From an uncultured bacterium (GTDB taxonomy: Bacteria; Patescibacteriota; Minisyncoccia; Phycocordibacterales; PALSA-1337), in the NCBI GenBank assembly GCA_963701025.1, contig OY969557.1, forward strand, positions 506,042 through 570,041: a stretch of 64,000 nucleotides of DNA, given 5' to 3'. Both the position numbers and the translations under genes were made by a program. The notes beneath the pieces were generated by a model. That model did not search any database and was not told the DNA's origin. It saw nothing but the letters and a program-made list of their open reading frames with translations. This document shows, piece by piece, positions 5,503-38,115 of the stretch (position 1 is the stretch's first letter; each line of letters opens with the position of its first letter).

Positions 5503-5548
5503 ATAAAAATACAACAGATGGAACGCGCCGTCCATAGCGGTTTTTATT
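5503..5548. terminator. Terminator hairpin after rplE (end of the truncated spc operon)
   Basis: ATGGAACGCGCCGTCCAT hairpin with T-rich flanks on both strands, immediately downstream of the rplE stop. Confidence 0.4.
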
Positions 5549-5566
5549 CTCCAAATATGTCAAAAA

Positions 5567-6127: not shown

Positions 6128-6169
6128 GTTTTTTCTTAAATCGTAAATCTCATTTCCTGCATCTTCGGG

Positions 6170-6385: not shown

Positions 6386-6430
6386 AGGAGTGAGTATGAA
6401 AGTATAAAGTATGCGGGTATGAGTGTATGG

Positions 6431-6802: not shown

Positions 6803-6832
6803 GGAGGTTAGGGTAGAGGGTGTAGGGTATAG

Positions 6833-7090
6833 TTAGGCAATCACTTTGAAGGCTTTGTTCTTCGACATCGGCCTGCAGGACTCGATAGTCGCCGTGTCAC
6901 CGATCTTCTTGGTATTGCCGGGATCATGCGCCATGAGCTTGGTCCTCTTGGTCTGGAACTTGTGATACTTTGCATGCTTGACGTAGCGCTCGATGACTAC
7001 TACCGTCGTGTCTTTCATTTTGTCCGACGAAACGACGCCGGTGAATGTCTGGCGTATCGTCTTTTGTTCGGCTGTTTTGGCGGTTGGCAT
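6833..7090 (-). CDS. rpsQ: 30S ribosomal protein S17
   Basis: Conserved uS17 sequence and operon position. Confidence 0.95.
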   Translation of the reverse strand: MPTAKTAEQKTIRQTFTGVVSSDKMKDTTVVVIERYVKHAKYHKFQTKRTKLMAHDPGNTKKIGDTATIESCRPMSKNKAFKVIA

Positions 7091-7151
7091 GTGAGCGCTG
7101 ATACTACTTGAAGTTTGTTGAAATGTCTAGCTAAAGGGAAACGGAAAATTT

Positions 7152-7358
7152 TTATTTTTGATTTTCTATCTTTACATTCATCGCCGTCAATATCCTGGCG
7201 ATGTCTTTCCGTATGGCCCTGCCCTCTTTTACATTCTTGGTCTTGGATCCCGTGGCGCCGAAACGGAATATGCGCAAAGACTCGCGCTTGTCGGCCGCGA
7301 GCTTAGCCAGGTCGGCTGGAGTCTTGCTGGTTATGTCCTTCATCTGTATAGCTTTCGT
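7152..7358 (-). CDS. rpmC: 50S ribosomal protein L29
   Basis: uL29-like 68-aa product starting at the internal Met (MTKAIQMKDITSKTPADL...). The ORF is open to 7400. Confidence 0.85.
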   Translation of the reverse strand, partial: TKAIQMKDITSKTPADLAKLAADKRESLRIFRFGATGSKTKNVKEGRAIRKDIARILTAMNVKIENQK

Positions 7359-7451
7359 CATAGAAAAAAGCTCGGTCGAGCTGTCCCGCCATGCTAACAA
7401 AAACGCGCCGGGGAGTCAAGGCGCGCCTGTGTTACGGGATATTATGCTCTT

Positions 7452-10379
7452 TTAAGCCCGCATCCTTCTCCAGATATAGAATCCGAGGCTGGCGAGAACG
7501 ACCAGGATGACAACGTAGACGTATATAGAATAGTTGACGCCAGCCCCTCCCACGGCGGCTACTTGAGAGGCGCCTGGTGTGCCCGGATTGCCCGTGGCAT
7601 TACCGGAATTCGATCCCGCGGAACCGGTGGAGTTGTTAGATAGCGCCGGGATAAGAGGTGCCCCAACTGGCGGTTGGGTACCTCCCGGAGTCAGGACAAG
7701 GCCGTTCGCGCCATTTCCGGCGGCGGAAATGAAGTTCTGACCGGAGCCAGCAGCAGCCGCGGCCGCATTACCCGCCGCGGCGAGAGCGACGGCAAACGGA
7801 ACGGCAGAAAAACCGCCGAATGACGATCCGCTACTGCCTCCGCCCCCGCTCAATTGCGGAGCGGGCGGATTATTGACAACTACGGTTCTTGTCACCTCCA
7901 CGGCGGGATTGCCGGCGGTATCAGTCGCGTTGTAGGCGACCGCGTATGTGCCGGCAACCGATGTGTTCACTATGTCGCCGCCGACTACAGCCGTAGTAGT
8001 TCCGTCGACGGCGTCGAACGCTGTGGCGCCTTGTTCAGTGTATTTATCGCCGACGGTCAGGCCAATTGACGCATCGCCGTTCAGGGTGATGACGGGAGGA
8101 ATTGTATCGACTACGGTCACGGAGAATGTAGAAGAAGAAATATTATTGCTCGAATCGGTAGCCGTGCATTTCACCGTGGTCGCACCAATGGTAAAGGTCG
8201 AGCCGGAAATCGGCGAACAGGCGGCTGTGGAATCTCCGCTATATGCATCATGTGCGGCCGGCGAATCATATGCTACTACAGCTCCAGAGGACGAAGCTGC
8301 TTCGGCAGTCACATCTTTGTGTGCGTCGATGGCCGGAGGTATGGTATCGACCGCATGAACGACCCTCACTACGGGAATAGCCACGTTCCCATGGCTATCT
8401 GTCACATTATAGATAACCGAATAATCGCCTATGACATTGCCGTCAACGGTGCTGGTCGTGGCAATCTGGCTCGTGAGATCCCCGTCTACACTGTCCGAGG
8501 CCGTGGCACCGGCGTCTACATATGTGGAAGGCGCTTGGATAGTCACGTCTGGGCTGCCGATGAGCGTTATTACCGGGGCTGTCGTGTCTTCGACAGTCAC
8601 TTTGAATGACGTAGGCGATGCATGGTTGCCGCTCGAGTCGACGGCATTGCAATCGACGGTGGTAGTGCCGAATGGAAAGGTCGAGCCGGAAGATGGGACG
8701 CAGACCACTGGTACGGGGCCGTCAACATCGTCCGTCGCCTTAGGAGGGACGTACGAAACGGCCGCTCCGGCGAGCGAGGTCGCCTCCACAGTCATGTCTC
8801 CAGGGCTCCCGCTGATGACCGGGGGAGTATTGTCGTATATGGTCATAGTCCCGGTCGCTTCGCCGGCGTAGTTGGGATCGGTCGAGCTTGCGTCTACTGC
8901 ATAACTGCCGAAAGCAGAGGGAGCAGTCGACGAGCCGTTATAGCTTATGGCCACCGACACACCGCCAGGCGTGGTGGAAGCCGTTACGATCTTCGGCGAG
9001 CCGTCATACGCTTGGCTCAAGCCATTCAAAGAGATGGCGACTGGCGCCGGGCCGATGGAAATGGAGAAGCTTTGGGTGGTGGATGATGTGCCGTTATCAG
9101 CGGTGACGGAAAAATTGGAGACACCGGCCGCGGTCGGAGTGCCGGAAATAGCCTCCGAGCGTCCGTCCGCGGCGGTCGAAAAGGAGAGACCGGCCGGCAA
9201 GGAGCCAGAAGACGTAGTGAAGGTGAATGGTCCGTCCGCCGAAGTAAACAGGTTCACAGACACCGGCCGTGGCAAATGCCCGTTCGAAAAAATCCGCTGA
9301 TACAGTGTGTTGACGGTGCCAGTCACCAAGGAAGACGGTGAGAGGCTGACCGGCATCGGGGCGACCGAGACGACCACGTTAAAGGTGCCGGTGCCCACCG
9401 CACCAAGCGTGCTCGTAGCGGTGCAGATGACTGTAGTCGTACCTGCAGGAAAGATCGAACCGGAAGCCGGATTGCACGCCACGGGGAGTGTGCCGCCGAA
9501 CACATATCCTGTAATGTAGTAGTCCGAATACGAAACACTTGTTCCATAAACCCCGCCGGCGGTAGCAGTAATATCTTGCGTAGGTATACCACCTATAGAA
9601 GGTATAGCTGGCGCGAATATCACAGATATGGTGTGATCGAAATGCTGCGGAGCGGGGAAACCGAGTCCGCTGTATCCGGCTGTACTAGTACCACCTCCAT
9701 TGAGCTGGCCATCAATGTAATCGGTATAGCTGTTGGCGATATAGCCAGGATCAGGTTCGAAGGTGATCGACTCGGAATTCCCAGAAGGAACGGTGAAGGT
9801 GCCGAGGGGCGATATCGTGCCATGTGGGCCGGCCGAGGTATTAAAGGTAACTGCGCCCGCAGAGGCGGCAGGAAAGAATAAAGCGTCGGGAGCCATGTTC
9901 GATATCGTCTTGAGGCTTGGAACAGGCGGTGTGCTCGATGGACCAACTGGGACGGCATCTGACGAACCGGAGGAAGTAGCAGAGGATGTAACACTAGTGT
10001 CGACAATAGTTGTCGTTGAAGTTGTTAATGCTGTAGTAGTCGTTGGTGCTGTAGTAGCGTCCCCGGCGTTAACGACCGCTGTCGATGTCGTTGCAACATA
10101 TCCGACAGGAGCTTGATCTGAAGATTGAACTAGGGAGCCAGCACTATCAGTAGTAACAGGGGTAGGATCAACGGGAGGCGTTGACGACACATCCGCAGGA
10201 GCGGATTGCGTGTCAGTAGAGACTGTTGGAGTGCCAGAAGAATCTGGAGCGGAGTCATCGGCATGCGTCACGAGCATCGGTATGTTGGCATACGAGCCGA
10301 CGAGAGCGATGATGACCACCGCTGAAAGCATTCTTGCGAGGGAAATATGGATATATTTCATAAAAGTCATGAAAAACAA
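7452..10379 (-). CDS. Large cell-surface protein (975 aa) with HYR/Ig-like (DUF5011-like) repeats, Thr/Ser-rich linker, Gly-rich region and C-terminal TM anchor
   Basis: There is an N-terminal signal/TM segment. Repeated PPVI(S/T)L..D.TV motifs resemble HYR/Ig-like domains. The C-terminus is YVYVVILVVLASLGFYIWRRMRA, a TM helix plus basic tail. The gene is inserted between rplP and rpmC. Confidence 0.7.
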   Translation of the reverse strand: MFFMTFMKYIHISLARMLSAVVIIALVGSYANIPMLVTHADDSAPDSSGTPTVSTDTQSAPADVSSTPPVDPTPVTTDSAGSLVQSSDQAPVGYVATTSTAVVNAGDATTAPTTTTALTTSTTTIVDTSVTSSATSSGSSDAVPVGPSSTPPVPSLKTISNMAPDALFFPAASAGAVTFNTSAGPHGTISPLGTFTVPSGNSESITFEPDPGYIANSYTDYIDGQLNGGGTSTAGYSGLGFPAPQHFDHTISVIFAPAIPSIGGIPTQDITATAGGVYGTSVSYSDYYITGYVFGGTLPVACNPASGSIFPAGTTTVICTATSTLGAVGTGTFNVVVSVAPMPVSLSPSSLVTGTVNTLYQRIFSNGHLPRPVSVNLFTSADGPFTFTTSSGSLPAGLSFSTAADGRSEAISGTPTAAGVSNFSVTADNGTSSTTQSFSISIGPAPVAISLNGLSQAYDGSPKIVTASTTPGGVSVAISYNGSSTAPSAFGSYAVDASSTDPNYAGEATGTMTIYDNTPPVISGSPGDMTVEATSLAGAAVSYVPPKATDDVDGPVPVVCVPSSGSTFPFGTTTVDCNAVDSSGNHASPTSFKVTVEDTTAPVITLIGSPDVTIQAPSTYVDAGATASDSVDGDLTSQIATTSTVDGNVIGDYSVIYNVTDSHGNVAIPVVRVVHAVDTIPPAIDAHKDVTAEAASSSGAVVAYDSPAAHDAYSGDSTAACSPISGSTFTIGATTVKCTATDSSNNISSSTFSVTVVDTIPPVITLNGDASIGLTVGDKYTEQGATAFDAVDGTTTAVVGGDIVNTSVAGTYAVAYNATDTAGNPAVEVTRTVVVNNPPAPQLSGGGGSSGSSFGGFSAVPFAVALAAAGNAAAAAAGSGQNFISAAGNGANGLVLTPGGTQPPVGAPLIPALSNNSTGSAGSNSGNATGNPGTPGASQVAAVGGAGVNYSIYVYVVILVVLASLGFYIWRRMRA

Positions 10380-10421
10380 GTCCTCGTATGACTAAAAATA
10401 TGGTTTTGCGGGGACAGGCGA

Positions 10422-10450
10422 ACCCTATCACACCTAGTAGTGCGTGTCAA
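10422..10450 (-). promoter_or_regulatory. Putative sigma70-like promoter for the 975-aa surface protein gene
   Basis: Minus-strand TTGACA, a 17-nt spacer, then TAGGGT, about 45 nt upstream of the ORF start. Confidence 0.3.
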
Positions 10451-10543
10451 GACAGCGTGTATATATATGGGGAGAAGCTGGGGACAGGACGGGGATAGCA
10501 AAAGCCTGCGGCTGGGCTATTTATCAAAAGTCACCAAAAGCGG

Positions 10544-10969
10544 CTACGCTCGGGCTACGATCTTGGTCTTCATGGGGAGCTTGGTGCCGGCCTTGCGAAG
10601 AGCTTCAGCGGCGACAACTGGTTCCACGCCATCGATCTCGAATATGATGCGACCCGGCCTGACTTCGGCGGTGAAGCCGACAGGCTCGCCTTTGCCCTTG
10701 CCCATTTTGACTTCAGCCGGCTTCTGGGTGAAGGGATGATCGGGGAAGACGCGGATCCAGACCTTGCCGGTCTTGCCGGCATTGTGCATGGCGGCTTTGC
10801 GGGCGGATTCGATCTGGTTGGAAGTGACGCGTCCATACTTCATGGCCTTAAGCCCGTACGAACCGAAAGAGACTTCAAGTCCGCGCGTCTCGGTCTTCAC
10901 GGCCTCCTTGGCCGCGTTCTTGCGCTTGGTGAACCATTTCCTATGCTTGACTTTCTTAGGATATAGCAT
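10544..10969 (-). CDS. rplP: 50S ribosomal protein L16
   Basis: Canonical uL16 ([11 protein letters not shown]...). Confidence 0.95.
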
Positions 10970-11032
10970 GTTGGTTAATTGAGGATTGGAATTGTAGATT
11001 GATAATTAATTTTCAATTTCAATTTTCAATTT

Positions 11033-11707
11033 TTAATTCGTTTTTTGATCCTTTTTAAATATCTCCCCTTTATATATCCACACCTTGATGCCTATGTCGC
11101 CATACGTCATATGGGCTTTTTCGCGAGCGAAGTCGATGTCGGCGCGCAGGGTCTGGAGCGGAACCTGGCCTTTCTTGAGCTCTTCGGTGCGAGCGATCTC
11201 GGCCCCGCCCAAGCGGCCGCCGAGACGGACGCGGATGCCCTTGACTTCCTTGTGAGCCATGACTTTCTCTATGGTCTGTTTCAGGACGCGGCGGAACGGC
11301 AGACGCTTTTCCAGAGCTTCGGCGATCATCATGCCGGTGATGGCGGCATTGGACTCCGGGCTCCGCACTTCCTCGACGTCGAGCTTGAGCTCCTTGCCGG
11401 CCAAGTCTATCTTGGCTTTGCGGATAAGAGTGATGATCTTCTCGCGAAGCTTGACGATGCCGTCGCCGGCCTTGCCGATGAGCATGCCGGGGCGCGACGT
11501 CTTGACGATAACGCGAATGCCCTTCTGGGTGCGCTCGATGTCGATGCCGCCGACGTAGAAGGAGCGGAGCTCTTTCTCCAGGAATTCGCGGATGATGATG
11601 TCGGTCTTGAGCGCAGTGCGATAGCTCTGGTCCGTAGCGAACCAGCGGCTCTTCCAGTCGCGGATGATTCCAAGCCTATGGGAATATGGATGTACGGTGT
11701 GGGACAT
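11033..11707 (-). CDS. rpsC: 30S ribosomal protein S3
   Basis: KH and S3-C domains; canonical uS3. Confidence 0.95.
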   Translation of the reverse strand: MSHTVHPYSHRLGIIRDWKSRWFATDQSYRTALKTDIIIREFLEKELRSFYVGGIDIERTQKGIRVIVKTSRPGMLIGKAGDGIVKLREKIITLIRKAKIDLAGKELKLDVEEVRSPESNAAITGMMIAEALEKRLPFRRVLKQTIEKVMAHKEVKGIRVRLGGRLGGAEIARTEELKKGQVPLQTLRADIDFAREKAHMTYGDIGIKVWIYKGEIFKKDQKTN

Positions 11708-11716
11708 GTTAGTAAA

Positions 11717-11745
11717 TGGAAAGTGGAAAGTGGAAAGTGGAAAGT
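11717..11745. repeat. Tandem heptad repeat (GGAAAGT)x4 on the plus strand, (ACTTTCC)x4 on the coding strand, filling the rplV-rpsC spacer
   Basis: Four perfect tandem copies, read directly in the sequence. The spacer is G-free on the mRNA strand. Confidence 0.9.
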
Positions 11746-11751
11746 TTCATA

Positions 11752-12132
11752 TTATTTTCTTGCGGGTTTATTACTATTCGCCACACTCAACTTTCCACCC
11801 TCGACTTTCGTAGCAAGCGTGATTGACACATGGCTGGTGCGTTTCTTGATGGGATGGGCGGAACCGCGGGAAACCGGCATATGGCGCTTGAGGACATAAC
11901 CCTGATCGACGCGGATCTCTTTTATGAAAAGGCTGGCTTTGTCGAGCTTGTGATTGTGGGAAGCGTTGGCCACGGCCGAGTCGATGAGATCGGAGAGCGG
12001 GTGCCGGGCTTTCTTCAACCCTTGAGCCAGGATGTTCTTGGCGTCACTAATGCTCTTGCCGCGGATCATGTTGGCCACGACACGGACTTTGCGGGGGGAG
12101 ATGCGATAATTCTTGAGGGATGCGGTGACCAT
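11752..12132 (-). CDS. rplV: 50S ribosomal protein L22
   Basis: Canonical uL22. Confidence 0.95.
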   Translation of the reverse strand: MVTASLKNYRISPRKVRVVANMIRGKSISDAKNILAQGLKKARHPLSDLIDSAVANASHNHKLDKASLFIKEIRVDQGYVLKRHMPVSRGSAHPIKKRTSHVSITLATKVEGGKLSVANSNKPARK

Positions 12133-12168
12133 GTTAGTGATTGAAAATTGGAATTGAAGATTGAAAGA

Positions 12169-12519
12169 TTATTTCTTGGCGCCGGCGTCGGTGGCGGCGG
12201 CTTTGGCGGCGGACGCGGCGGCGATCTCGGCCTCCTTGGCTTTCATCTCGATCTCCTTCTGCATCTTGCCGCCGTGGCGGACGAACTTCTTTGTGGGCGA
12301 AAATTCACCGAGGCGGTGTCCAACCATGTCCTCGGTGACCAGAACGTCGTTATGGATGCGCCCATTGTGGACGCCGAAGGTGAAGCCCACCATCTCCGGG
12401 GAGATCTGCGAGCGGCGCGCCCAGGTCTTTATGATACCGGCGGATGCCGGCTTTTTTCCCGCGATCTTCTTGAGGAGCCTCTCTTCGACGAAAGGCCCTT
12501 TTTTGAGCGAACGTGCCAT
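12169..12519 (-). CDS. rpsS: 30S ribosomal protein S19 with Ala/Lys-rich C-terminal tail
   Basis: uS19 core ([19 protein letters not shown]...) plus a roughly 25-aa AK-rich extension. Confidence 0.95.
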
Positions 12520-12669
12520 GTTCAATGAAAAATGCTCGAAGCGAGCGTGGAAGCCATAGTATCAGAGCCGGATTGGAGAGTCAAGAGAATGGCTAAGATA
12601 AAGGATGGGTAATAAAAAGCCGGGCCCATTTCTGAACCCAGCAACTGTGCTAAACCTGATTTTCAGCGA

Positions 12670-13122
12670 TTACGGCATGCCACCAAACATGTGTTCGCTC
12701 ACCAGATGAACGCCGCGGCCAACTGCGGCTCCGCGCTCATAATGCTTGGCAATGACGGCCATAAGCCCATAAAAGTAAGCCTTCCTGCCGTCAGTATCGA
12801 GTTGGAATTTGAATGTGGAACCGCACGCCTTGATGACACCACCAATCCGGGCAAAACCGCGAAGATGCTCAATGGGAACATCCAGAAAGACCTCTGCCAA
12901 TGGGTCGCTACGACCAGAACCGACTTTTTCCTTCGGGACGCCGAACATTTCAGCGAGATCATGAGCCGTGGCTGAACCAGGGGGCTTGTCCGACTGATGG
13001 AATTCGGCAAAGATAGACTTCGCGCCAAGAGATGTGACAGAGAAACTCAATTTCCGGAACGCGTCCATCACCGCGACCGTGAGCAGACCAAGGTTAGGGC
13101 CACTGTATACGACAGTCTTCAC
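12670..13122 (-). CDS. Hypothetical protein (150 aa), no confident family assignment
   Basis: Clean ORF co-oriented with the ribosomal protein operon, lying between rplB and rpsS. Its GC is similar to the host. Confidence 0.4.
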   Translation of the reverse strand: MKTVVYSGPNLGLLTVAVMDAFRKLSFSVTSLGAKSIFAEFHQSDKPPGSATAHDLAEMFGVPKEKVGSGRSDPLAEVFLDVPIEHLRGFARIGGVIKACGSTFKFQLDTDGRKAYFYGLMAVIAKHYERGAAVGRGVHLVSEHMFGGMP

Positions 13123-13181
13123 ATCCGATGGCCGCGTGGGATGTTATCCGAACGGATTTAAGCCGTTATTATAACTAATCC

Positions 13182-13736
13182 TTATTTAGCTACTGACCAT
13201 TTTTTTACCGTATTACCAAGCCATTTGAGTTGGCTGATGCGAAGTCGATTCAGTATTGGTAATAGATAAGATATCAAACCAGAGAAATCTTCAGACGGAC
13301 CACAAACCTCTTGTTCAATAATAAATGCAACATCTGCATCGAGCGGATCTATTTTTATACCGTAAAGTTTTTCCATTGATGAGTGCTGGTTGTCAATTTC
13401 TTGCGTCTTTTTTTCATGAAATGCGAACGCTAGTACAAAAAACTTCTTGGCTTCATCTGGCAAAGAATGCATAAGCTTTTCCTGAATTTTTTCTCCAAAA
13501 ATAGATAAATAACCGCCTTCAGGAGCGAGACACAAATAGAAAAGGTGCGCTCCAATTAGGCAGTTTATAAACTTCGATTTTATCTCATCATTACTCAAAA
13601 TACCGGTCCAGTCTGGTAAATCTTCCTTTTTCAATTCGGCCACCAATTTCGTAGAATTAATAGCCGACCACGACGGAAATTCGTTAAGAATAATTTCGGA
13701 GTCCTTATCTGTTTTTGATTTGGAAAACCATCCCAT
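13182..13736 (-). CDS. Hypothetical protein (184 aa), low-GC ORFan
   Basis: AT-rich compared with its surroundings. No recognisable motifs. Confidence 0.4.
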   Translation of the reverse strand: MGWFSKSKTDKDSEIILNEFPSWSAINSTKLVAELKKEDLPDWTGILSNDEIKSKFINCLIGAHLFYLCLAPEGGYLSIFGEKIQEKLMHSLPDEAKKFFVLAFAFHEKKTQEIDNQHSSMEKLYGIKIDPLDADVAFIIEQEVCGPSEDFSGLISYLLPILNRLRISQLKWLGNTVKKWSVAK

Positions 13737-13753
13737 AATGAATAGATTCTAGC

Positions 13754-13996
13754 TCATAATTGGCTGTATTCGCCGACCGCGCCTACAGCTCTTTCGGAAA
13801 GTGATGCGCAAGCCGCTTGGTAGATAATAGACAGTATATCAGAACAGATCATCTCCAGATAATCCTTATTGAAAGTCGAGGGTGTGATCGAGCTTCCAAT
13901 ATTCTTGCCTTGGTCCCACAACTCAAATCGTGACTGGCCGTCTTGTACTGGTTCCTCGTACATTCTCAACATTTCTTTTATCTCTGAAGACTTCAT
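13754..13996 (-). CDS. Hypothetical small protein (80 aa), low-GC ORFan
   Basis: AT-rich and tightly spaced upstream of the 184-aa gene. Confidence 0.3.
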   Translation of the reverse strand: MKSSEIKEMLRMYEEPVQDGQSRFELWDQGKNIGSSITPSTFNKDYLEMICSDILSIIYQAACASLSERAVGAVGEYSQL

Positions 13997-14058
13997 CAGA
14001 AAAATCTATCATACTGATATAAAAAAGTCACCAGCTCCTTTAAGCTCAATATCCCCCA

Positions 14059-14067
14059 TGCTATAAT
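14059..14067 (+). promoter_or_regulatory. Extended -10 element (TGCTATAAT) upstream of the histidine kinase gene
   Basis: TGnTATAAT lies about 25 nt upstream of the ATG at 14090. Confidence 0.4.
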
Positions 14068-14089
14068 TCCCCCACCAGTCTCTTTCTCC

Positions 14090-14908
14090 ATGACATCAGC
14101 ATATCTCATCAGCGTCTTTAGTCTCATGCAAAACAGCCCATATTCGATAGTGGCTACAGCCCTCGTCACAGCTCTCATCGCCGCCCTCATCATCCACATC
14201 CTCTGGCGGAAGCTCCGGGAGGACGAGAGATCGAAATACGAATTCATCACCATCATGGCCCACAAGTTCCGCACGCCGCTCACCCATATCAAATGGGTCT
14301 CCGAGGAGTTATCCGGCAACACCCAGGAAACGTCGACGCGCGAAGGCCTGAAAGAGATCCAGAAAGCCGACAAGAACCTGGTCGGCCTCACAACGACATT
14401 GATCGAGCTAACGGATTCTGATACGGACCACGCCTTGTATTCATTCGAAGCCACCGATCTGTGCGATTTCGTCAAGACGATCGGCGAGACGGCGAGGCGG
14501 ACCTTCCAGGAGAAGAACATCTTCTTCTCGGTCGCCTGCGACAGCGGCCCGGTATTCGCCAAGATAGACAGACCGCGCATGGAATTCGCCGTTCAAGTGC
14601 TCATGGACAATGCCTTCGCCTACACGCCGACGGGCAAGAAGGTGGAGATTTCGGTCGGCGGCTCCGGACACAATGCAGTCATATCGGTCAAGGACGGGGG
14701 CATCGGCATTCGGGAATCTGACGTGAAAAAGATATTCGGCAAATTCTTCCGGGCGGACAATGCCAGAGCCGCGGATACCGAGGGATTCGGCATCGGGCTC
14801 TATCTCGCCCGGTCAGTGGTCAAAAAACACAAAGGAAAGATCACGGCCTTCTCGGAGGGAGAAGGCCGCGGTTCGGTATTCAATATAATACTGCCCCGGT
14901 CGCGATAG
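14090..14908 (+). CDS. Orphan mini sensor histidine kinase (single TM, HisKA + HATPase_c, no sensor domain)
   Basis: H-box MAHKFRTPL. N, G1 and G2 boxes are present (DGGIGI, GFGIGLYL). One N-terminal TM helix. No response regulator lies nearby. Confidence 0.85.
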   Translation: MTSAYLISVFSLMQNSPYSIVATALVTALIAALIIHILWRKLREDERSKYEFITIMAHKFRTPLTHIKWVSEELSGNTQETSTREGLKEIQKADKNLVGLTTTLIELTDSDTDHALYSFEATDLCDFVKTIGETARRTFQEKNIFFSVACDSGPVFAKIDRPRMEFAVQVLMDNAFAYTPTGKKVEISVGGSGHNAVISVKDGGIGIRESDVKKIFGKFFRADNARAADTEGFGIGLYLARSVVKKHKGKITAFSEGEGRGSVFNIILPRSR

Positions 14909-14934
14909 ACGATAGGCGTGAGGTGCGCCGACAA

Positions 14935-15786
14935 CTAGAGCTTGGTCTTCTTCTTGCCGACTTGACGTCTGGAAACAATGAAGACGTTGGAATACTTCTT
15001 GGGCGTGCGGGTCTTCTGGCCCTTGCCGGCGGGCTTGCCCCAGCGGGTCTTGAGGCGGCGCAGACCGCGGCCGGTCCTCTGCTCGCCGCCGCCGTACGGG
15101 TGGTCGACGGGGTTCTGGGCCGAGCCGCGGACAGTCGGGCGTATGCCCATCCAACGGGTGCGTCCCGCTTTGCCGATATTGACCAGGCGATTCTCTTCGT
15201 TGGAGACGGCGCCTATGGTGGCCCAAGCGTCTTCATGGACCTTGCGGACTTCTGAAGACGGCATCTTGATGTGGGTGTAGCTCGCGTCATTGGCGACCAC
15301 CTGGCCGAACGATCCGGCCGAGCGGACAAGCTTGGCTCCGGAACCAGGTTTGATCTCGATGTTGAAGACGAAGGTGCCTACCGGGATCTTTTTGAGCGGC
15401 AAACGGTTGCCGGTCTCGATGGGAGCTGATTCGGACACCATGAATGAATTGCCTACTTTCATCGTTTTTGGCAGGAGGACATAGCGCTTTTCGCCGTCTT
15501 TGTAAGCGACGAGGCCGATATAGCCGGTGCGGAAAGGATCGTACTCGACGGTCTTGACCGTGGCGCGTATGCCTTTCTTGTCATAATTGAAATCGATCTT
15601 GCGATAAAGCTTGGCATGACCTCCGCCCTTGTGGCGGACGGTGATGCGGCCGAAGGAATTGCGTCCCATGTCGCGCTTCCAGCCATGGGTCAGAGGCTTG
15701 TACGGTTCCGACGCGGTCAAGTACTGCTTGAACGGCAGTACCGTCATATGGCGGCGAGATTTAGTTGTGGGGCGGAAGCTTTTCAT
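14935..15786 (-). CDS. rplB: 50S ribosomal protein L2
   Basis: Canonical uL2. Confidence 0.95.
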   Translation of the reverse strand: MKSFRPTTKSRRHMTVLPFKQYLTASEPYKPLTHGWKRDMGRNSFGRITVRHKGGGHAKLYRKIDFNYDKKGIRATVKTVEYDPFRTGYIGLVAYKDGEKRYVLLPKTMKVGNSFMVSESAPIETGNRLPLKKIPVGTFVFNIEIKPGSGAKLVRSAGSFGQVVANDASYTHIKMPSSEVRKVHEDAWATIGAVSNEENRLVNIGKAGRTRWMGIRPTVRGSAQNPVDHPYGGGEQRTGRGLRRLKTRWGKPAGKGQKTRTPKKYSNVFIVSRRQVGKKKTKL

Positions 15787-15834
15787 GTGATTATTGCTCT
15801 ATTTGTAGCATTAGGATAAATTCGTTGATTCGGA

Positions 15835-16344
15835 TTATACAAAATCGATCTTCTCGCCTTTCTTGACGGTCACGACCGCCTTGCGGAAACCGGCCACCCG
15901 GCCTTTCCGTCCGCGGAGGAAGACCATCTTGGCAGGAGCGTTCAGAACCGCGATCTTGACCGGAGTAACCTTGTACAAGGCTTTCACCGCCTTGCCTATA
16001 GACTGTTTGTTAGCTTCTCTCGTCACCTCGAAGGTATAGACCCCGCTCTGGCTTAAAAGGCCGGACTTTTCGGTGATGCGTGGACGGATGATAGCATCAG
16101 TCGCGCTCGAGAAAGAACCCGATGGCATAGCCATTGAAGCCTTGGCCGCGGCGGCGTCTTTGGTCACGACCGCGCGGGAGATCTTTTCCGGCTTTTCAGA
16201 TCCGAACTTCCTCGTATTCCTTGTGCCGGCGGCATTCGCCGAGGAGCGCGCCCGATCGGGAGCGGCGTTCTTGGCCAGCTCCGCGGTAGCTTGGATGTGG
16301 CTCTGCTCGTGCTTCTTGTCTTTTCTGAATCCGAAGAGTGGCAT
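15835..16344 (-). CDS. rplW: 50S ribosomal protein L23 with a roughly 75-aa Lys/Ala-rich N-terminal extension
   Basis: The uL23 core sits in the C-terminal ~95 aa. The extended start leaves only 47 nt to rplD, whereas the internal Met would leave 258 nt. Confidence 0.8.
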   Translation of the reverse strand: MPLFGFRKDKKHEQSHIQATAELAKNAAPDRARSSANAAGTRNTRKFGSEKPEKISRAVVTKDAAAAKASMAMPSGSFSSATDAIIRPRITEKSGLLSQSGVYTFEVTREANKQSIGKAVKALYKVTPVKIAVLNAPAKMVFLRGRKGRVAGFRKAVVTVKKGEKIDFV

Positions 16345-16391
16345 GGTAGTGAATGAAAATTTCTAATTGACCTAATTATCTAATTTCTAAA

Positions 16392-17063
16392 TTATGCTTC
16401 TTTGGCCATCTTGACGGTAAGGGCTTTCAACGACTCTTCCGGATTGGCCACGATGAGATACGTATGGTTCAGAACCGAAACGGGATTGATGTTGCGGAAT
16501 TCCTCCACCGAGACGTTGCCGAAATTGCGGAAGCTCTTCTCGACGGCGGATGACTTGGCGTCCATGGCTATGATGGCGGCATTGGTCGTCTTTGTGGCGA
16601 GCCTCTCATAGCCTTTTATCTTGGAAAGAGACGAGAGCATGGCCTTGGCGTCTTTGGCCTTGGGCGCGGACATATTGACCGCGTCGAGGAAAAGGATCTC
16701 GCCATCCTTCCATTTGCGGGAGAGGATGGTATAGAAAGCCTTGGTCTTGGCCTTCTTGTTGATCTTGCGCGAATAATTCTGGTCATTGCGCGGACCGTGA
16801 GCGACGCCGCCGCCGACCCAGAGTGGCGAACGGGTCGAACCGTGGCGGGCGCGGCCAGTGCCTTTTTGTTTCCACGGCTTCTTGCCGCCGCCGCGGACTT
16901 CGCCGCGGGTCTTGGTATGGGCGATGTTCATGCGCGAATTGGAATTCATCAGACGGACCACCTCGTGGACCAGGTCGGCGTTCCAGGGCAGGCCGAAGAC
17001 GCCTTCCGGGAGCTTGATTTTACCCGTCGATTTCCCTGTCTGATTATAGACTGTTGCTTCCAT
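16392..17063 (-). CDS. rplD: 50S ribosomal protein L4
   Basis: Canonical uL4. Confidence 0.95.
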   Translation of the reverse strand: MEATVYNQTGKSTGKIKLPEGVFGLPWNADLVHEVVRLMNSNSRMNIAHTKTRGEVRGGGKKPWKQKGTGRARHGSTRSPLWVGGGVAHGPRNDQNYSRKINKKAKTKAFYTILSRKWKDGEILFLDAVNMSAPKAKDAKAMLSSLSKIKGYERLATKTTNAAIIAMDAKSSAVEKSFRNFGNVSVEEFRNINPVSVLNHTYLIVANPEESLKALTVKMAKEA

Positions 17064-17153
17064 GAAAGAAAAAAGCTCTTGCGAGTCGTGCCGAGCATAG
17101 TAGCAGAGCCGTGAAGGAGAGTCAACAGCTAGGTGAAAGGCGCTGGCAGAAAT

Positions 17154-17215
17154 CTTGAGCGTTTCTTTATCAAATCTTAGGCGTTTTTTGATTACTTTTT
17201 GAGCGTTTCTTTATC
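17154..17215 (+). promoter_or_regulatory. Two direct repeats TTGAGCGTTTCTTTATC (17154-17171 and 17198-17215) upstream of the toxin gene; putative promoter/operator
   Basis: Direct repeats 44 nt apart. The second repeat lies 22 nt before the ATG. The same 17-mer recurs upstream of both comEC halves. Confidence 0.5.
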
Positions 17216-17236
17216 TCGATTTGATATGGTTAGAGG

Positions 17237-17545
17237 ATGAAAGTCATGCCGACAGAAGAAGTAGATGCCTTCATAGAGACCTGTGAGAAAAGGGTCCGTG
17301 CCAAAATCAGCAGACGTTTTCTAATGCTTGAAAAGTTTGGTCCTATGATCCGTATGCCTTATAGCAGATATATTCTCCCTGGAGTTTTTGAGCTTCGTAC
17401 AACAGGAAAAGACAACGTGCGGCTAGTTTATGCATTTATAAACGATAAGGCGGTCGTGTTCTATGCGTTTATAAAAAAGACCGAGGAGATAAGCGCCCAC
17501 GAGATAGGCTTAATAAAACAAAAGCTTAAGAACTTGCATTTATGA
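17237..17545 (+). CDS. Type II toxin, Gp49/RelE-like (HigB-like, DUF891 family)
   Basis: About 100 aa, toxin-first order, overlapping an XRE-HTH partner by ATGA. Confidence 0.6.
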   Translation: MKVMPTEEVDAFIETCEKRVRAKISRRFLMLEKFGPMIRMPYSRYILPGVFELRTTGKDNVRLVYAFINDKAVVFYAFIKKTEEISAHEIGLIKQKLKNLHL

Positions 17546-17847
17546 CTTATACGGCATATACTACCTTTATGAAAACAGTAAATTGGAGAGAGAGGCATGA
17601 GAAAGACATGGAAGACCCTGAATACAGAAGGGAGTGGGATGCTCTTGGGCTCGAATTCGATATTATCCACGCCATCATCCGCAAACGCATCAAGGACGAC
17701 ATGACCCAAGCCCAGTTGGCCAAAAAGATGCGCACCGGCCAGGCGACTATTTCGCGTTTGGAGTCTGGAACCTACAATCCTTCAGTGAAATTCCTTCGCA
17801 GACTGGCCAAGGCGTTAGACGCGGAGCTCACGATCAGGTTGGTGTGA
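17542..17847 (+). CDS. XRE-family HTH antitoxin (HigA-like)
   Basis: HTH motif (MTQAQLAKKMRTGQATISRLESG) and a 4-nt overlap with the upstream toxin. Confidence 0.7.
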   Translation: MTYTAYTTFMKTVNWRERHEKDMEDPEYRREWDALGLEFDIIHAIIRKRIKDDMTQAQLAKKMRTGQATISRLESGTYNPSVKFLRRLAKALDAELTIRLV

Positions 17848-17858
17848 TCTAAAATTAT

Positions 17859-18482
17859 TTAACCTACAATCTCCACCAGCGTTCCTCTCCTTCCCGGTAT
17901 CGCTCCGGCAACATACAGGATGTTCTCTTCCGGGTCAACGTGAGCGACCTTCAAGTTCTTGACGGTTATGCGATCAGAGCCCATGCGTCCGGCCATGCGC
18001 ATACCAGTCGGCACGCGGTTGCGCAGGCCGCCGCCGATCGAGCCCGGTTCGCGCTCGCTGTGCTTTTGGCCGTGGGAGCGCGGGCCTCCGTGGAAGCCGT
18101 GACGCTTGACCACGCCTTGGAAGCCCTTGCCTTTGGACACTGCTGAAACGACGACCACATCGCCTGCTTTGAACTGTGAAAGCTCTATCTTGTCGCCGAC
18201 CTTAAAAGAAGGAGTTGGGAGTAAGGAGGAAGGAGAAAGACGGAATTCCGACAGGGCGGCAAAGCTTCCAAGGTCTTTCCATTGGCCCTTTTGCGCCTTG
18301 TTGACGCGAACAGGATTGCGCGAACCTTCACCCACCTGGACAGCTTCATAGCCGTCGGCTTCCTTGGTCCTGACTTGGGTGACGATATTCCCGCGGGCGG
18401 CAACGAGCGTAACCGGAATAGCCGCTCCGGAGGCGTCGTAGATCTGGGTCATGTTCAATTTTCTTCCGAGGATGAATTTCAT
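17859..18482 (-). CDS. rplC: 50S ribosomal protein L3
   Basis: Canonical uL3. Confidence 0.95.
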   Translation of the reverse strand: MKFILGRKLNMTQIYDASGAAIPVTLVAARGNIVTQVRTKEADGYEAVQVGEGSRNPVRVNKAQKGQWKDLGSFAALSEFRLSPSSLLPTPSFKVGDKIELSQFKAGDVVVVSAVSKGKGFQGVVKRHGFHGGPRSHGQKHSEREPGSIGGGLRNRVPTGMRMAGRMGSDRITVKNLKVAHVDPEENILYVAGAIPGRRGTLVEIVG

Positions 18483-18494
18483 TGGAATATGTAA

Positions 18495-18529
18495 TGCGAA
18501 TCTACAAATAGTATCCGAATGCCACGAAT
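18495..18529 (-). promoter_or_regulatory. 35-nt promoter-like element upstream of rplC; near-identical copy upstream of rpsL
   Basis: 33 of 35 positions are identical to 30832-30866. On the coding strand it reads cATTCGGAtactatttgtagattcgCATTAC, i.e. a -35-like box, a 17-nt spacer, a -10-like box, then about 11 nt to the ATG. Confidence 0.5.
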
Positions 18530-18568
18530 TCGTAGCATTAGTGCGTATTCGCAGATTCGGATTATGCT

Positions 18569-18988
18569 CTACATCATCTTGACGTCGATGTTCACTCCCG
18601 ATGGCAAGCTCAAGTTCGTGAGAGCTTCGATGACTTTCGGGTTCGGGTTGATGATATCGATGAGCCGCTTGTGTACTCGCATCTCGAACTGCTCGCGGGC
18701 GTTCTTGTCGATGAAAGACGAACGGTTGACGGTGTATTTCTTGATCTCCGTTGGCAATGGCACCGGACCGAGGATTTCGACGTCATAACGCGACGCGGTA
18801 TCCATGATCTGGCGCAGGCTGGCATCCAGGATCTTGTGCTCGTAGGCACGAACGCGGATGCGCAAGTGAGGCAGGGCGCCTTCAGGCTTGGCCTTCTTGG
18901 CCCGGGGTGCTTTCAGCGCCGAAGCCTTCGAGGCGACTGCCGGCTTTGAATGGACCTCCTTCTTGGTTGTGGTCTTGGCTGTAGGCAT
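18569..18988 (-). CDS. rpsJ: 30S ribosomal protein S10 with a roughly 40-aa Lys/Ala-rich N-terminal extension
   Basis: The uS10 core begins at LRIRVRAYEHK. It is preceded by an AK-rich tail. Confidence 0.9.
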   Translation of the reverse strand: MPTAKTTTKKEVHSKPAVASKASALKAPRAKKAKPEGALPHLRIRVRAYEHKILDASLRQIMDTASRYDVEILGPVPLPTEIKKYTVNRSSFIDKNAREQFEMRVHKRLIDIINPNPKVIEALTNLSLPSGVNIDVKMM

Positions 18989-19068
18989 GATATGTAATCC
19001 TAATCTACGAATCTCATCCGAATGCCGCGAATATTCGTTGTATTCGTGCGATTATTCGTAGATTCGCA

Positions 19069-29161: not shown

Positions 29162-29166
29162 GGAAT

Positions 29167-33780: not shown

Positions 33781-34743
33781 TCAAATACGATGGGGGATAC
33801 GGATATCTACCCCATCCGAAACTATCTTGACTGTTCCCTTCTCCTTTATATTGAATCTCTTGTCGTCAAGGATGGAGTAGAGCGGATCCACTTTTTTATT
33901 CTTTGATGAAGAATCTTTTGAAGTTGCGGATTTTTTCGGCGAAGCGTTCATAGTCTGCGAATAGAGGAGATACTCCGGCTTCATCTTATTTATAAGCTCG
34001 GCCGACAATGATCCGGCCAAAGCGCTGTGCGTCACGACCAGAACATTCGCACCCAGCGTATTATCAGAAATCGAATCAGACGAAGATGCGGCTGAAGATA
34101 CTAAAAATTTCTGCACTTTCGTCGTGGCATTGCCGAGCAACATGACCGAGGTCCCGCCATACGATATTTTCATGATGATCTCCGGCGCGCTGGCTTTCGA
34201 ATAGGCGAAAGCGTTGATGGCTGGAAAAAGTATATCCGCTTTCACTCTCTGCCCGCCTATTTTTTGGCCGAAATCGAGCGTGCCTCCGGCCGAAACTTCT
34301 TCCAAAGGGATTTTGAGGCGTTTGGCCGTATCGAGAAATACTCCATATATCTGGTCCGTCGAGCTTGCCAAACCCAATGATTGTAATGAAACCGCTGGCA
34401 CAACGACTCTATCGACGGAATATCGTTCAAGGATATCGATGAGCCCGGAGACGTCTTTACCATTTGCATCAGTAGCTATGACAGTGTCGATCCGACGCGA
34501 ATAAAATGGCAAGATGCCGGTCAATTCACGGATGACTTCGGCATTCCCTCCTCCATTTATCAAGATCCTCGCGTCATCGGGCGTGCGGATGAAGACCGAT
34601 GAACCGCTTTTCAAATCGAAAACGTATATTTCGAGCAGGGGTTGCCGGTGCTTTTCGTTCCAGACATAACCAGCCATGCCGCAGGCTAGGGCCGTGGCGG
34701 CGGCGCCGATGAGGAAAGGCTTCGAGGCGATCTTAACTGTCAT
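33781..34743 (-). CDS. ComEC C-terminal metallo-beta-lactamase domain protein, encoded separately with its own N-terminal TM helix
   Basis: LEIYVFDLKSGSSVFIRTPDDARILINGGG matches the Lactamase_B region of ComEC/Rec2. The N-terminal TM is FLIGAAATALACGMAGYVW. Confidence 0.7.
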   Translation of the reverse strand: MTVKIASKPFLIGAAATALACGMAGYVWNEKHRQPLLEIYVFDLKSGSSVFIRTPDDARILINGGGNAEVIRELTGILPFYSRRIDTVIATDANGKDVSGLIDILERYSVDRVVVPAVSLQSLGLASSTDQIYGVFLDTAKRLKIPLEEVSAGGTLDFGQKIGGQRVKADILFPAINAFAYSKASAPEIIMKISYGGTSVMLLGNATTKVQKFLVSSAASSSDSISDNTLGANVLVVTHSALAGSLSAELINKMKPEYLLYSQTMNASPKKSATSKDSSSKNKKVDPLYSILDDKRFNIKEKGTVKIVSDGVDIRIPHRI

Positions 34744-34765
34744 GCCTCAAGCTTACCGGCCGGCG

Positions 34766-34810
34766 ATAAAGAAACGCTCAAAAAAGGCTCAAGAAACGAT
34801 GAAGATCTGA
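34766..34810. promoter_or_regulatory. 45-nt element upstream of the comEC-MBL gene (contains the TTGAGCGTTTCTTTATC motif on the coding strand); near-identical copy at 36946-36990
   Basis: 40 of 45 positions are identical between the two copies. Both sit 20-25 nt upstream of a comEC-half start codon. Confidence 0.5.
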
Positions 34811-34908
34811 TAAAGAAATGCCTAAGAAAAGTGCTATAATAGCCGCGCATCAATGGGTTTATTTATTAAAATATGTTTTATAACAGATATAACTAACAAA
34901 AATAATCT

Positions 34909-35506: not shown

Positions 35507-36922
35507 TTAAATCTTGTTAGGCACCCACGTTTTTTCAACAGCTGTTCGTCTTCCCCTCCTCTTCACCAGCACAAACCCGATCAAAAACACCGCGTAAAAA
35601 CCCGCCACCCACCATCCGGAGAAAGCCGGCAGATATACCGCAGCGAACGGCAATCTGGCAAAATGTTCGACTATGAAAAGCTCGTAGGATAGAAGCAGAT
35701 GCGCGCCCCAACCCATGACTTGCGAGGCGAGCGCGGATACAAATCCCGCGGCGCCGGTCAGAAAGACGGCGAGCATCGTTATGGGGACTAGGGGCAATAC
35801 GAGCATATTTGCCGCTACTCCGATGATGGAGAGCTGACCCATAATGTAGAGAATGAAAGGCGAGACGAATATCTGGGTGGAGACCGTGGCGGCGATGATG
35901 CCGCGGACGCCGAATGCGTCAGGGATGAAAGCCAGTCGCTCTTCTATGGGTTTCGCCAATATGATGAGCCCGAAGGTGGCAAGGAACGACAATTGGAATG
36001 AGGCGTCATATAGCAATATCATCGGATTCTGGATGAGCATGACCAGTCCGGCGAAAGACAGCGACCTTATGATGCTGTAGTCTCGGCGCATGAGATCGGC
36101 AGAAAGCGCTATGCCTGACATAAAACAGGAACGCACGACCGTGGCTCCGCCGCCGACCAGGATACCGAAAAGGACTATGCCCAAAGCGCCTATGGCGATA
36201 CCCCAAACCCGTGGCAGGAATGAGAGCAGACGGCGCATAGCCACCGCCACGATGGTTATGTTAAAACCGGACAAGACGACGATGTGGATCAAGCCGACTG
36301 TGCGGAAATCATTGAGCAGGTCCGTGCCCAGAGCGGCCTTTTCGCCCACGACCAGTCCCGCCGCCAAGGCCGAGTGCGGTTCGCCGAGAGCGCCGTTCAG
36401 ATTGTCCACAAAAGCGCGCTTGATCTTGAGCAGGAAGGACGTGATAGATTGGCCCTTATCGGCTTCGGCCAAAGATACCGTTGAGCTCTTCATCTCATAG
36501 AAGATGTCGTCCTTGGCCAGATAATTCCGGTAATCGAACGGCCTGCCACTGCCGCTGGCGAAATTGACCGGCGCAAGCAATTTCCCCGAAAATGATACGG
36601 TCTCCCCGTAATGGAACCTCGGATAGAGCTTGGTCTTCATGCGTACGAGCATGCCGCTGGGACATTCAGTGGCGCTTGCCGGAGAAGTCCCTGGAGAAGT
36701 GCCGCTAGTCGAAATATTCTGCGGCGACAATTTTTCAGCCTCTACGATCAAGATCTGGCCTGTGTCGGTGAATGACGGATCTTGAGTGATCGTGCCGGTG
36801 CCGCGTATCTGTTGTTTCAGGCATGAGCCCATATCTGGCGGATGTATGCCAAACGAAAAAATCAGACGGATGAGAGCCGCTCCGCCGAAAATCGTCCAGA
36901 AGATAAAGACTCTCCGGTTCAT
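35507..36922 (-). CDS. comEC: ComEC/Rec2 DNA-uptake channel (DUF4131 + Competence domains), lacking the MBL domain
   Basis: Polytopic membrane protein with a ComEC competence-domain pattern. Its stop lies 2 nt from the sodA-like stop on the opposite strand. Confidence 0.8.
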   Translation of the reverse strand: MNRRVFIFWTIFGGAALIRLIFSFGIHPPDMGSCLKQQIRGTGTITQDPSFTDTGQILIVEAEKLSPQNISTSGTSPGTSPASATECPSGMLVRMKTKLYPRFHYGETVSFSGKLLAPVNFASGSGRPFDYRNYLAKDDIFYEMKSSTVSLAEADKGQSITSFLLKIKRAFVDNLNGALGEPHSALAAGLVVGEKAALGTDLLNDFRTVGLIHIVVLSGFNITIVAVAMRRLLSFLPRVWGIAIGALGIVLFGILVGGGATVVRSCFMSGIALSADLMRRDYSIIRSLSFAGLVMLIQNPMILLYDASFQLSFLATFGLIILAKPIEERLAFIPDAFGVRGIIAATVSTQIFVSPFILYIMGQLSIIGVAANMLVLPLVPITMLAVFLTGAAGFVSALASQVMGWGAHLLLSYELFIVEHFARLPFAAVYLPAFSGWWVAGFYAVFLIGFVLVKRRGRRTAVEKTWVPNKI

Positions 36923-36945
36923 GGAGGGCCATTGTACTCGTCCAA

Positions 36946-36990
36946 GATAAAGGAACGCTCAAGAAAGCCTCAAGAAACGATGAAGATCCG
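36946..36990. promoter_or_regulatory. Second copy of the 45-nt element, upstream of the comEC channel gene
   Basis: GATAAAGGAACGCTCAAGAAAGCCTCAAGAAACGATGAAGATCCG aligns with 34766-34810. Confidence 0.5.
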
Positions 36991-37031
36991 CTCAAATTTC
37001 ACTGAAGATCTGCTTGCTTGCCTATAATCGG

Positions 37032-38105: not shown

Positions 38106-38115
38106 GCGTGCAATT

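Follow-up and report, generated by a model that had tools for sequence, protein, structure and literature searches.

The boxes recognised by the response regulators PhoB, PhoP and PmrA are arranged as hexamer-N5-hexamer, a geometry similar to that of promoters controlled by SARP activators, and CtrA, an OmpR-family protein with half-sites phased at 11 bp, controls comEC, comM and dprA in Rhodobacterales. At SARP promoters, the repeats lie 11 or 22 bp apart and the 3' repeat is located 8 bp from the -10 element; in one example, the afs box extends from -40 to -19, with a poor -35 sequence at -38 to -33 and an extended spacer (PMC10936776). Here we describe a promoter element of comparable architecture in a 64,000-nt stretch of DNA (hereafter, the window) from an uncultured member of the Patescibacteriota (GenBank assembly GCA_963701025.1, contig OY969557.1, positions 506,042 to 570,041). 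The element, an array of six direct half-sites, precedes a Gp49-XRE toxin-antitoxin (TA) pair and both halves of a split comEC gene. Its sequence, promoter context and recurrence in related genomes suggest that it is probably the activator-dependent promoter module of a competence and toxin regulon, for which a regulator of the OmpR/PhoB family is the most likely candidate.

An earlier note on this DNA had pointed to a 17-mer, TTGAGCGTTTCTTTATC, present in two copies before the TA pair and, at a similar distance from the start codon, before each of the two comEC genes. Both copies upstream of the Gp49-XRE pair are real, although they begin one position later than reported (17155 and 17199 instead of 17154 and 17198), occupying 17155-17171 and 17199-17215 on the + strand. 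The sites at the comEC genes were confirmed as well: an exact copy lies at 34765-34781 (- strand) upstream of the half encoding the beta-lactamase-like (MBL-like) domain, and a copy with one mismatch at 36946-36962 (- strand) upstream of the channel gene, the distances from the motif end to the ATG at the three genes being 21, 21 and 23 nt. Weaker second copies are present at both comEC loci (34809-34825 and 36979-36995). With up to three mismatches allowed, the 17-mer had 6 matches in the window against 0.20 expected, a number reached in none of 100 shuffled sequences. When the three loci were placed in the same orientation, their common sequence proved to be much longer than 17 nt, and a hidden Markov model (HMM) of the 66-nt block recovered exactly three copies in the 64 kb (E = 2e-17 to 4e-15; next match, E > 2). 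The arrays and the genes that they precede are the following:

17150..17215, + strand: array of six half-sites upstream of the Gp49-XRE operon, with exact 17-mers at 17155 and 17199 and a weaker middle unit, TTAGGCGTTTTTTGATT
34765..34830, - strand: array upstream of the ComEC C-terminal (MBL-like) gene (17-mer search, block HMM)
36946..37011, - strand: array upstream of the ComEC channel gene, its proximal unit with one mismatch (17-mer search, block HMM)
17237..17545, + strand: Gp49/HigB-like toxin gene, 102 aa (PF05973, E = 1.8e-14, 54 bits against a cutoff of 23.9)
17542..17847, + strand: XRE-family helix-turn-helix (HTH) antitoxin gene, 101 aa (HTH_3, 1.2e-13)
33781..34743, - strand: gene for the ComEC C-terminal beta-lactamase-like (MBL-like) domain (structure and ComEC_Rec2 match)
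35507..36922, - strand: ComEC channel gene, with DUF4131 and Competence domains (Pfam)

All three window copies, as well as those of relatives, consist of six consecutive direct half-sites, TT[G/T/C]A[G/T]C, each with a T-rich tail after position 6, in an 11-nt register that was seen in every array copy. Among the 18 half-site units of the three window arrays, positions 1-2 are TT in all 18, position 4 is A in 16 and position 6 is C in 15. The six half-sites make up three units of 22 bp that lie on the same face of the helix and extend from about -88 to about -22. The 17-mer is the invariant promoter-proximal unit of a ~66-bp array within a promoter module of ~80 bp. A refined model and a position-weight scan of the 64 kb revealed neither a fourth array nor any array upstream of the window's pilus genes (PilC, pilin-like), RecJ or extracytoplasmic function (ECF) sigma factor gene. 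The best additional 22-mer (11029-11050, score 17), at the rplP/rpsC junction, was dismissed as lacking an array.

The arrays are followed by a -10-like element at a fixed distance. Among 40 unique array copies, drawn from the window, a related metagenome-assembled genome (MAG) and metagenome contigs, 39 carry a hexamer, [T/C]AnnnT, exactly 9 or 10 nt after the array (9 nt in 13 copies, 10 nt in 26). A TG extension precedes this hexamer in 31 of the 39, and an ATG follows it after 6-9 nt in 23. The fixed distance between hexamer and ATG resembles that of leaderless mRNAs and thus provides independent support for the -10 assignment; the transcripts of most array-driven genes are probably leaderless. 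No -35 sequence was found at the canonical 17-bp spacing, where AGCGTT or GCGTTT occurs, and TTGAGC lies 20-21 bp from the -10 element. Numbered from the predicted start, TTGAGC occupies -38 to -33 and TTTATC -27 to -22. Upstream of the TA operon, a promoter scan of the + strand gave no sigma-70 pair. The -10-like elements of the window are listed below together with a promoter of rplD found in the same scan, which serves as the housekeeping comparison:

17222..17230, + strand: TG-extended -10-like element TGATATGGT (hexamer TATGGT), assigned by consensus, 9 nt from the array end and 6 nt from the ATG at 17237
34750..34755, - strand: -10-like hexamer TAAGCT, 9 nt from the array end and 6 nt from the ATG at 34743
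36931..36936, - strand: -10-like hexamer TACAAT, 9 nt from the array end and 8 nt from the ATG at 36922
17097..17125, - strand: sigma-70-like rplD promoter TTGACT-17-TACTAT with TG (promoter scan)

Two of the window copies are without the TG extension, CGG preceding TAAGCT at the MBL-like gene and GAG preceding TACAAT at comEC. Since the rplD promoter is of textbook form, the housekeeping promoters of this host appear to be canonical and the array promoters to constitute a distinct class. Thus, the proposal that the three loci share an unusual promoter class was borne out: each comprises an array, a -10 hexamer and an ATG, and in relatives the same module is found at the orthologues as well as at further genes. 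Array-driven genes that are not predicted to be leaderless (those for pilins, LCAT-like proteins and small coiled-coil proteins) display an ATTATCA-like motif near the predicted 5' end of leaders of ~45-57 nt, noted by eye at loci L078, L108, L109, L119, L124, L133 and L135. A role of the array as an RNA element was discarded, given that no Rfam family reached threshold in the window or in five related loci and that the block lies upstream of the predicted start.

The distribution of the element was surveyed by scanning species-representative genomes with a 19-mer (93 loci) and metagenome contigs with a 20-mer (42 contigs); the matches were then scored against the block model. Isolated 19- or 20-mers in unrelated sequence accounted for most of the 93 genome matches and ~23 of the 42 metagenome matches and were dropped after this scoring, leaving about 19 true arrays among the metagenome contigs. 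One relative, the MAG MFD01223.bin.2.47, is syntenic with the window, with ~70-80% nucleotide identity in conserved genes (its loci L086 and L025 correspond to window positions 27-43 kb), and contains at least 14 full-length arrays. These lie upstream of the orthologues of comEC and the MBL-like gene, of the genes encoding ComM (Mg_chelatase, 5.8e-83) and DprA (1.2e-56), of an rpsF-ssb operon with a leader of ~115 nt (identified from open reading frame (ORF) translations only, with no family search), of the gene for a 1012-aa secreted protein whose homologue at L135 is LCAT-like, of a Gp49-XRE pair, of three PemK/MazF-like genes, and of several small genes with weak LPD3 or MuF_C similarity. 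The recA gene beside the ssb locus of this MAG has no array. Metagenome arrays were located upstream of comM, two type IV pilin genes, genes for two LCAT-like proteins (~1000 aa), PemK-like, LPD3-like, small coiled-coil and IS200/RAYT-like genes, and one stretch without an ORF; comM, pilin and LCAT-like targets recur independently in these contigs. Family matches of the array-driven genes include N_methyl pilins, PemK_toxin, Gp49 and ComEC. An XRE partner is found only at the Gp49 genes, the PemK-like, LPD3-like and other array-driven genes being solitary, and PADLOC returned no known defence system match for the PemK-like, LPD3-like, MuF_C-like and coiled-coil genes.

In more distant Patescibacteria, the exact proximal unit is accompanied by a degenerate phased array, and the proximal 17-22 nt, the best conserved part of the array, are the only part that remains exact. 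In a Taylorbacteria MAG, the proximal unit is kept at comEC with the same upstream RNase H synteny, the adjoining spacer having diverged; in these distant genomes, the unit also lies upstream of a prepilin gene and of the gene for a conserved small coiled-coil protein. A single cis-element is thus common to genes of DNA uptake and processing, namely the comEC halves in the window and comM, dprA, rpsF-ssb and the pilin genes in relatives. A chance placement of at least 5 of 16 arrays at competence genes would be expected with a probability of about 1e-5 to 1e-6, a rough estimate that assumes about 950 genes, about 15 of them competence-related, per genome. The element, its geometry, its recurrence and this set of genes are all observed directly.

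Other features of the array-driven genes deserve mention. The ~1000-aa secreted protein, which combines an LCAT-like alpha/beta-hydrolase with a NosD-like beta-helix, is array-driven in three organisms (L078, downstream of 4745; L108; L135, 311-3232), which suggests a lipase-type effector co-regulated with DNA uptake. A second array at L101 drives a 193-aa homologue of IS200/RAYT-like Y1 transposases (YCLMPNHFH motif; weak PF01797 match). Directly upstream of an array driving a small coiled-coil protein lies the gene for a 276-aa receiver-domain protein (L119, 3931-4761; L133, 2-379), which could belong to the same circuit as an additional signalling component. This protein has one Pfam receiver domain (residues 159-269) and no DNA-binding domain; a second, N-terminal receiver domain is our own reading of its sequence.

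We then considered which protein might act on the array. A rough screen of 278 kb of related DNA with PhoB, OmpR, AgrA, CheY and ComK queries yielded one OmpR/PhoB-family response regulator, whose stop codon abuts an array (L110), and no homologue of LytTR (AgrA-like) or ComK-like regulators. Homology searches showed that the clade of this regulator is conserved in MAGs of Taylorbacteria, Paceibacterota and Parcubacteria. Five members were compared (100, 79, 74, 69 and 63% identity). Their flanking genes differ, and in all five the regulator gene is directly followed by an array of phased half-sites of the form TT[T/G/C]A[T/G]C. A TAnnnT hexamer comes 9-10 nt further on, and the predicted 5' end carries a palindrome, GTTATG(T/G)GTCGACATAAC, that is also conserved. 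In two of the five genomes, the transcript predicted to start from the array runs into a histidine kinase gene, a response-regulator/kinase feedback layout that is usual in two-component systems, and in two others the array is followed by a conserved, apparently structured stretch of ~180 nt. The region of the recognition helix, MEHVWTADS(D/N)PFSNTVEAHxRNLRKK, does not vary among the five members, which matches the invariant TTTATC-type half-site. On the basis of this adjacency and of the family-typical site geometry, the conserved OmpR/PhoB-family response regulator is the most likely protein to act on the array as its activator.

The ORF-less stretch downstream of the regulator-linked array (L139, 10752-10930; L136, 842-1015; also L140, L141 and L142) begins with the palindrome GTTATGTGTCGACATAAC, shows several compensated pairs between two genomes, and had no Rfam match; it is a candidate small RNA or kinase-gene leader. 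The histidine kinase encoded in the window (14090-14908) was considered as a partner of the regulator and rejected as an orthologue, sharing only 23-26% catalytic-domain identity with the regulator-linked kinases.

From these observations we infer that a protein binds the array, that it acts as an activator and not as a repressor, and which regulator it is, as well as a meaning for the co-induction of toxins with competence genes. In the mechanism that we propose, a dedicated winged-helix activator would bind the array head to tail, and its proximal dimer would take the place of the absent -35 contact and bring in RNA polymerase, in the manner of PhoB, PhoP and SARP activators. The resulting regulon, in a lineage of Paceibacteria-type Patescibacteria, would comprise DNA-uptake and processing genes, a secreted LCAT-like hydrolase and variable small toxin-like genes, and the Gp49-XRE pair between rplC and rplD would be one of its members and not its regulator. 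The more specific idea that a two-component system turns on the DNA-uptake programme while co-inducing the LCAT-like lipase and intracellular toxins is tentative, and we regard it as somewhat less probable than its negation. If true, it would imply that obligate epibionts enter a state that joins attack, growth arrest and DNA uptake, and would provide the first regulon, and the first assignment of a regulator to its site, for the candidate phyla radiation.

Several points weigh against this proposal. A TG-extended -10 element could work without an activator, in which case the array would be a repressor site, and the -10 and leaderless assignments were made from consensus and spacing only. The census covered copies with an exact 19- or 20-mer and is thus biased towards near-identical proximal units. 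Within the window, the array is seen only before the comEC halves and the TA pair, and PilC, the pilin-like gene and RecJ are without it; dprA, comM and ssb of the window's own genome lie outside the window. Likewise, the candidate regulator is encoded outside the 64 kb, its own promoter has no array, and its adjacency to an array could reflect conserved synteny with a single local target.

The alternative that best withstands these data, although we consider it unlikely, is a repressor-operated, SOS-like regulon, in which the TG-extended promoters would be active by themselves and a protein, possibly the same response regulator, would coat the half-sites over the -35 region and upstream of it, silencing the genes until a signal displaces it. 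OmpR-family proteins can also repress, the TG extension present in 31 of 39 copies can stand in for a -35 sequence, and dprA, comM, ssb and toxin genes resemble SOS or stress regulons elsewhere. However, the array never covers the -10 element or the start and reaches upstream to about -88, as is typical of activator sites, and its geometry equals that of the activator-type pho and afs boxes. Furthermore, the copies without TG and with weak hexamers, those of the MBL-like gene and comEC in the window, would be very weak promoters if unaided, and recA, adjacent to the ssb locus in the relative, is without an array.

Considerably less probable than repression is recognition by an alternative sigma factor, either a competence sigma or the ECF sigma factor of the window (4878-5504), which would read TTGAGCGTTTCTTTATC together with the downstream hexamer. 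The ECF sigma factor, encoded with a putative anti-sigma, had been put forward in the earlier note as possibly recognising the motif. Competence regulons of Firmicutes are driven by alternative sigmas, and a sigma factor might account for the proximal 17-22 nt being the part best conserved and the sole exact part in distant Patescibacteria. This explanation is disfavoured, and its ECF version was rejected: the -10 element, TGnTAnnnT, is of the housekeeping and not of the ECF type, TTGAGC lies at a spacing of 20-21 bp, beyond normal sigma geometry, and the half-site is repeated five more times upstream in exact 11-bp phase, which a sigma factor does not need. Moreover, no block precedes the ECF sigma gene, although ECF sigmas are usually autoregulated.

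Slightly more improbable still is a generic or mobile promoter-bearing repeat, whether a constitutive cassette promoter or a repeat resembling miniature inverted-repeat transposable elements (MITEs), with no dedicated regulator. The copies within one genome are indeed very similar, many precede accessory, mobile-looking genes (toxins, IS200-like), and cassettes occupy the insertion spot beside rplC in two genomes. Nevertheless, all array copies face their downstream gene at a fixed distance, have unrelated upstream flanks and show no terminal inverted repeats, unlike MITEs or repetitive extragenic palindromic (REP) elements with orientation-free insertion, and among different genomes the array recurs in orthologous position at core single-copy genes (comEC, comM, dprA, the ssb operon, pilin). 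The earlier note had held that a motif widespread upstream of unrelated genes would be a generic promoter. The motif is widespread, but it is not generic, as it is found at only 3 of about 70 window genes and elsewhere at genes that form a coherent set, the housekeeping genes of the window are without it, and the rplD promoter is canonical.

Finally, the idea that the block is the operator of the XRE antitoxin or of the Gp49-XRE complex, which would also repress the comEC genes, is the least probable of all and was effectively refuted: XRE is a DNA-binding protein encoded in a block-bearing operon and type II antitoxins normally autoregulate, but ~40 unique copies stand at 10 or more unrelated gene families, most without a nearby XRE gene (comM, dprA, rpsF-ssb, pilin, LCAT-like, PemK-like, LPD3-like and IS200-like genes among them), so that a TA regulon fails by the earlier note's own reasoning on unrelated genes, the sites are direct repeats at helical phase instead of the palindromes used by XRE dimers, with none over the TA -10 element or start, and the arrays at comEC, comM and pilin genes are kept across genomes with differing toxin cassettes.

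The TA operon itself was identified as described in the earlier note, both by Pfam and by its neighbours. It lies in the S10 cluster between the genes for L4 (rplD) and L3 (rplC), with S10 beyond and then EF-Tu (recognised from its ORF translation only), and is encoded on the opposite strand. The toxin gene, of the Gp49/RelE-ParE superfamily, comes first, and the start of the XRE-HTH gene overlaps its stop by 4 nt; neutralisation of the toxin by the antitoxin is putative for this pair. A single inverted repeat, ATCAAA/TTTGAT, occurs in 17130-17290, and it lies within the array. No repeat of this kind spans the -10 element or the start, so that a sequence-level inspection revealed no palindromic autoregulatory operator over the TA promoter. 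The rplD promoter and the TA array stand back to back, about 25 bp apart, and a protein bound to the array could also affect how rplD and the ribosomal genes after it are transcribed; transcripts reading through from rplC would run antisense to the TA pair. The middle units of the TA array (TTAGGCGTTTTTTGATT) are of the type prevailing in the relative MFD01223, and those of both comEC arrays (ATCTTCATCGTTTCTTGAG) are of the type of the Ga0182011 and Ga0182027 contigs, and hence the TA cassette may have been acquired, together with its promoter, from a related lineage.

The S10/spc ribosomal-protein cluster (3736-18988) is interrupted at least four times, one of the insertions being the Gp49-XRE pair between rplC and rplD. 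The others are a histidine kinase gene (14090-14908) and three ORFs without a Pfam match (12670-13996) after rplB, the gene for a 975-aa surface protein with Ig-like, HYR and MBG domains (7452-10379) after rplP, and the ECF sigma gene with that of a DUF5667 putative anti-sigma (3736-5504) after rplE. In the related metagenome contig L112 (1-3651), an array-driven cassette consisting of an LPD3-like gene (61-450) and the gene for a 524-aa membrane protein lies beside rplC-rpsJ, which are 76-79% identical to window positions 17853-18992. With this second array-driven cassette at rplC, the junction that follows rplC appears to be a place of repeated insertion in the lineage. Further small gene pairs resembling TA modules, none with an array, are present in the window in the regions 28880-29373, 32028-32481, 37848-38334, 48216-51381 and 53835-54431, which also encode a DUF3800 protein, an Eco57I/MmeI-type methylase-restriction protein and a SocA/Panacea-domain protein.

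The division of comEC into two genes, likewise noticed earlier, was corroborated. The ORF at 33781-34743 has no Pfam match, and matches the beta-lactamase-like domain of a solved ComEC structure (30bt_A, residues 530-714, E = 6.7e-5). Against the ComEC_Rec2 model, this ORF covers positions 437-633 and the channel ORF positions 82-411; since the two match separate parts of the model, comEC is genuinely split. In the metal-binding stretch, HPDADH of the solved ComEC aligns to DANGKD in the window MBL-like ORF and to DADDKD in its relative at L086, a stretch that we equated by inspection with ComEC motif II, whose aspartates are needed for nuclease activity (PMC8579336). The nuclease of the window MBL-like domain may therefore be impaired, lost or altered. 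A superoxide dismutase gene (34909-35505, + strand) lies between the two halves. Upstream of comEC, an RNase H ORF (37175-37864) shares part of its length, in a different frame, with an 83-aa ORF (37032-37283). The sequence of the latter is kept in two relatives, at the 3' end of the gene preceding comEC; the overlap could stem from a frameshift or a sequencing error, or the two ORFs could represent a fused-domain gene.

Response-regulator-dependent phased-repeat promoters and competence regulons are both well known. What appears to be new is this motif, the composition of the regulon (DNA-uptake genes together with several toxin families, mostly leaderless) and the host phylum. The 17-mer does not appear in the literature searched, which likewise offers no account of a regulon, box or regulator of competence in Patescibacteria. 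Within the phylum, comEC-dependent natural transformation has been shown only for Saccharibacteria, according to passages of a paper in which regulation is not addressed and natural competence is presented as currently the sole route to Patescibacteria genetics (PMC10633639). Patescibacteria represent a large share of bacterial diversity, and their gene regulation is almost unstudied. In this context, the array looks like the first readable on-switch for DNA uptake in these bacteria, and not like a TA operator. A promoter module with a named candidate regulator makes the timing and induction of competence testable, and the module could find use as an inducible promoter and in making uncultured lineages more transformable. 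Furthermore, the wiring of several toxin families to an external regulon, instead of or besides self-regulation, would link toxin induction to DNA uptake.

Compared with known competence systems, the array resembles the streptococcal cin-box (sigma X), the ComK boxes of Bacillus, CRP-S/Sxy and CtrA sites in that one cis-element would co-ordinate comEC, dprA, ssb, comM and pilin genes, and its consensus is, by inspection, unrelated to the cin-box, K-box and CRP-S sequences. Pneumococcal fratricins and the type VI secretion system of Vibrio are examples of killing functions that are co-regulated with competence. One publication on such joint control is PMC6237807. The functions found here are intracellular type II-like toxins instead of secreted bacteriocins, with the exception of the LCAT-like secreted protein.

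The closest parallels are the PhoB, PhoP, PmrA and SARP boxes. Here, as there, direct-repeat half-sites are 11 or 22 bp apart, additional units lie upstream, and the proximal pair overlaps or replaces a poor -35 sequence and ends 8-10 bp before the -10 element; the 11-bp direct repeats, the proximal site over the -35 region and the absence of a functional -35 sequence are those of OmpR/PhoB/SARP-type promoters. The array differs from them in its new half-site, TT[G/T/C]A[G/T]C, in having six consecutive half-sites instead of two to four, in the predicted leaderless nature of most transcripts, and in its association with DNA uptake and toxins in a Patescibacterium. With HigB/HigA systems, the window pair shares the toxin-first order, a Gp49/RelE-superfamily toxin, an XRE HTH antitoxin and overlapping genes. 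Unlike them, it uses the shared module of a regulon in place of a private palindromic operator, so that control of the Gp49-XRE pair appears to come from outside the pair.

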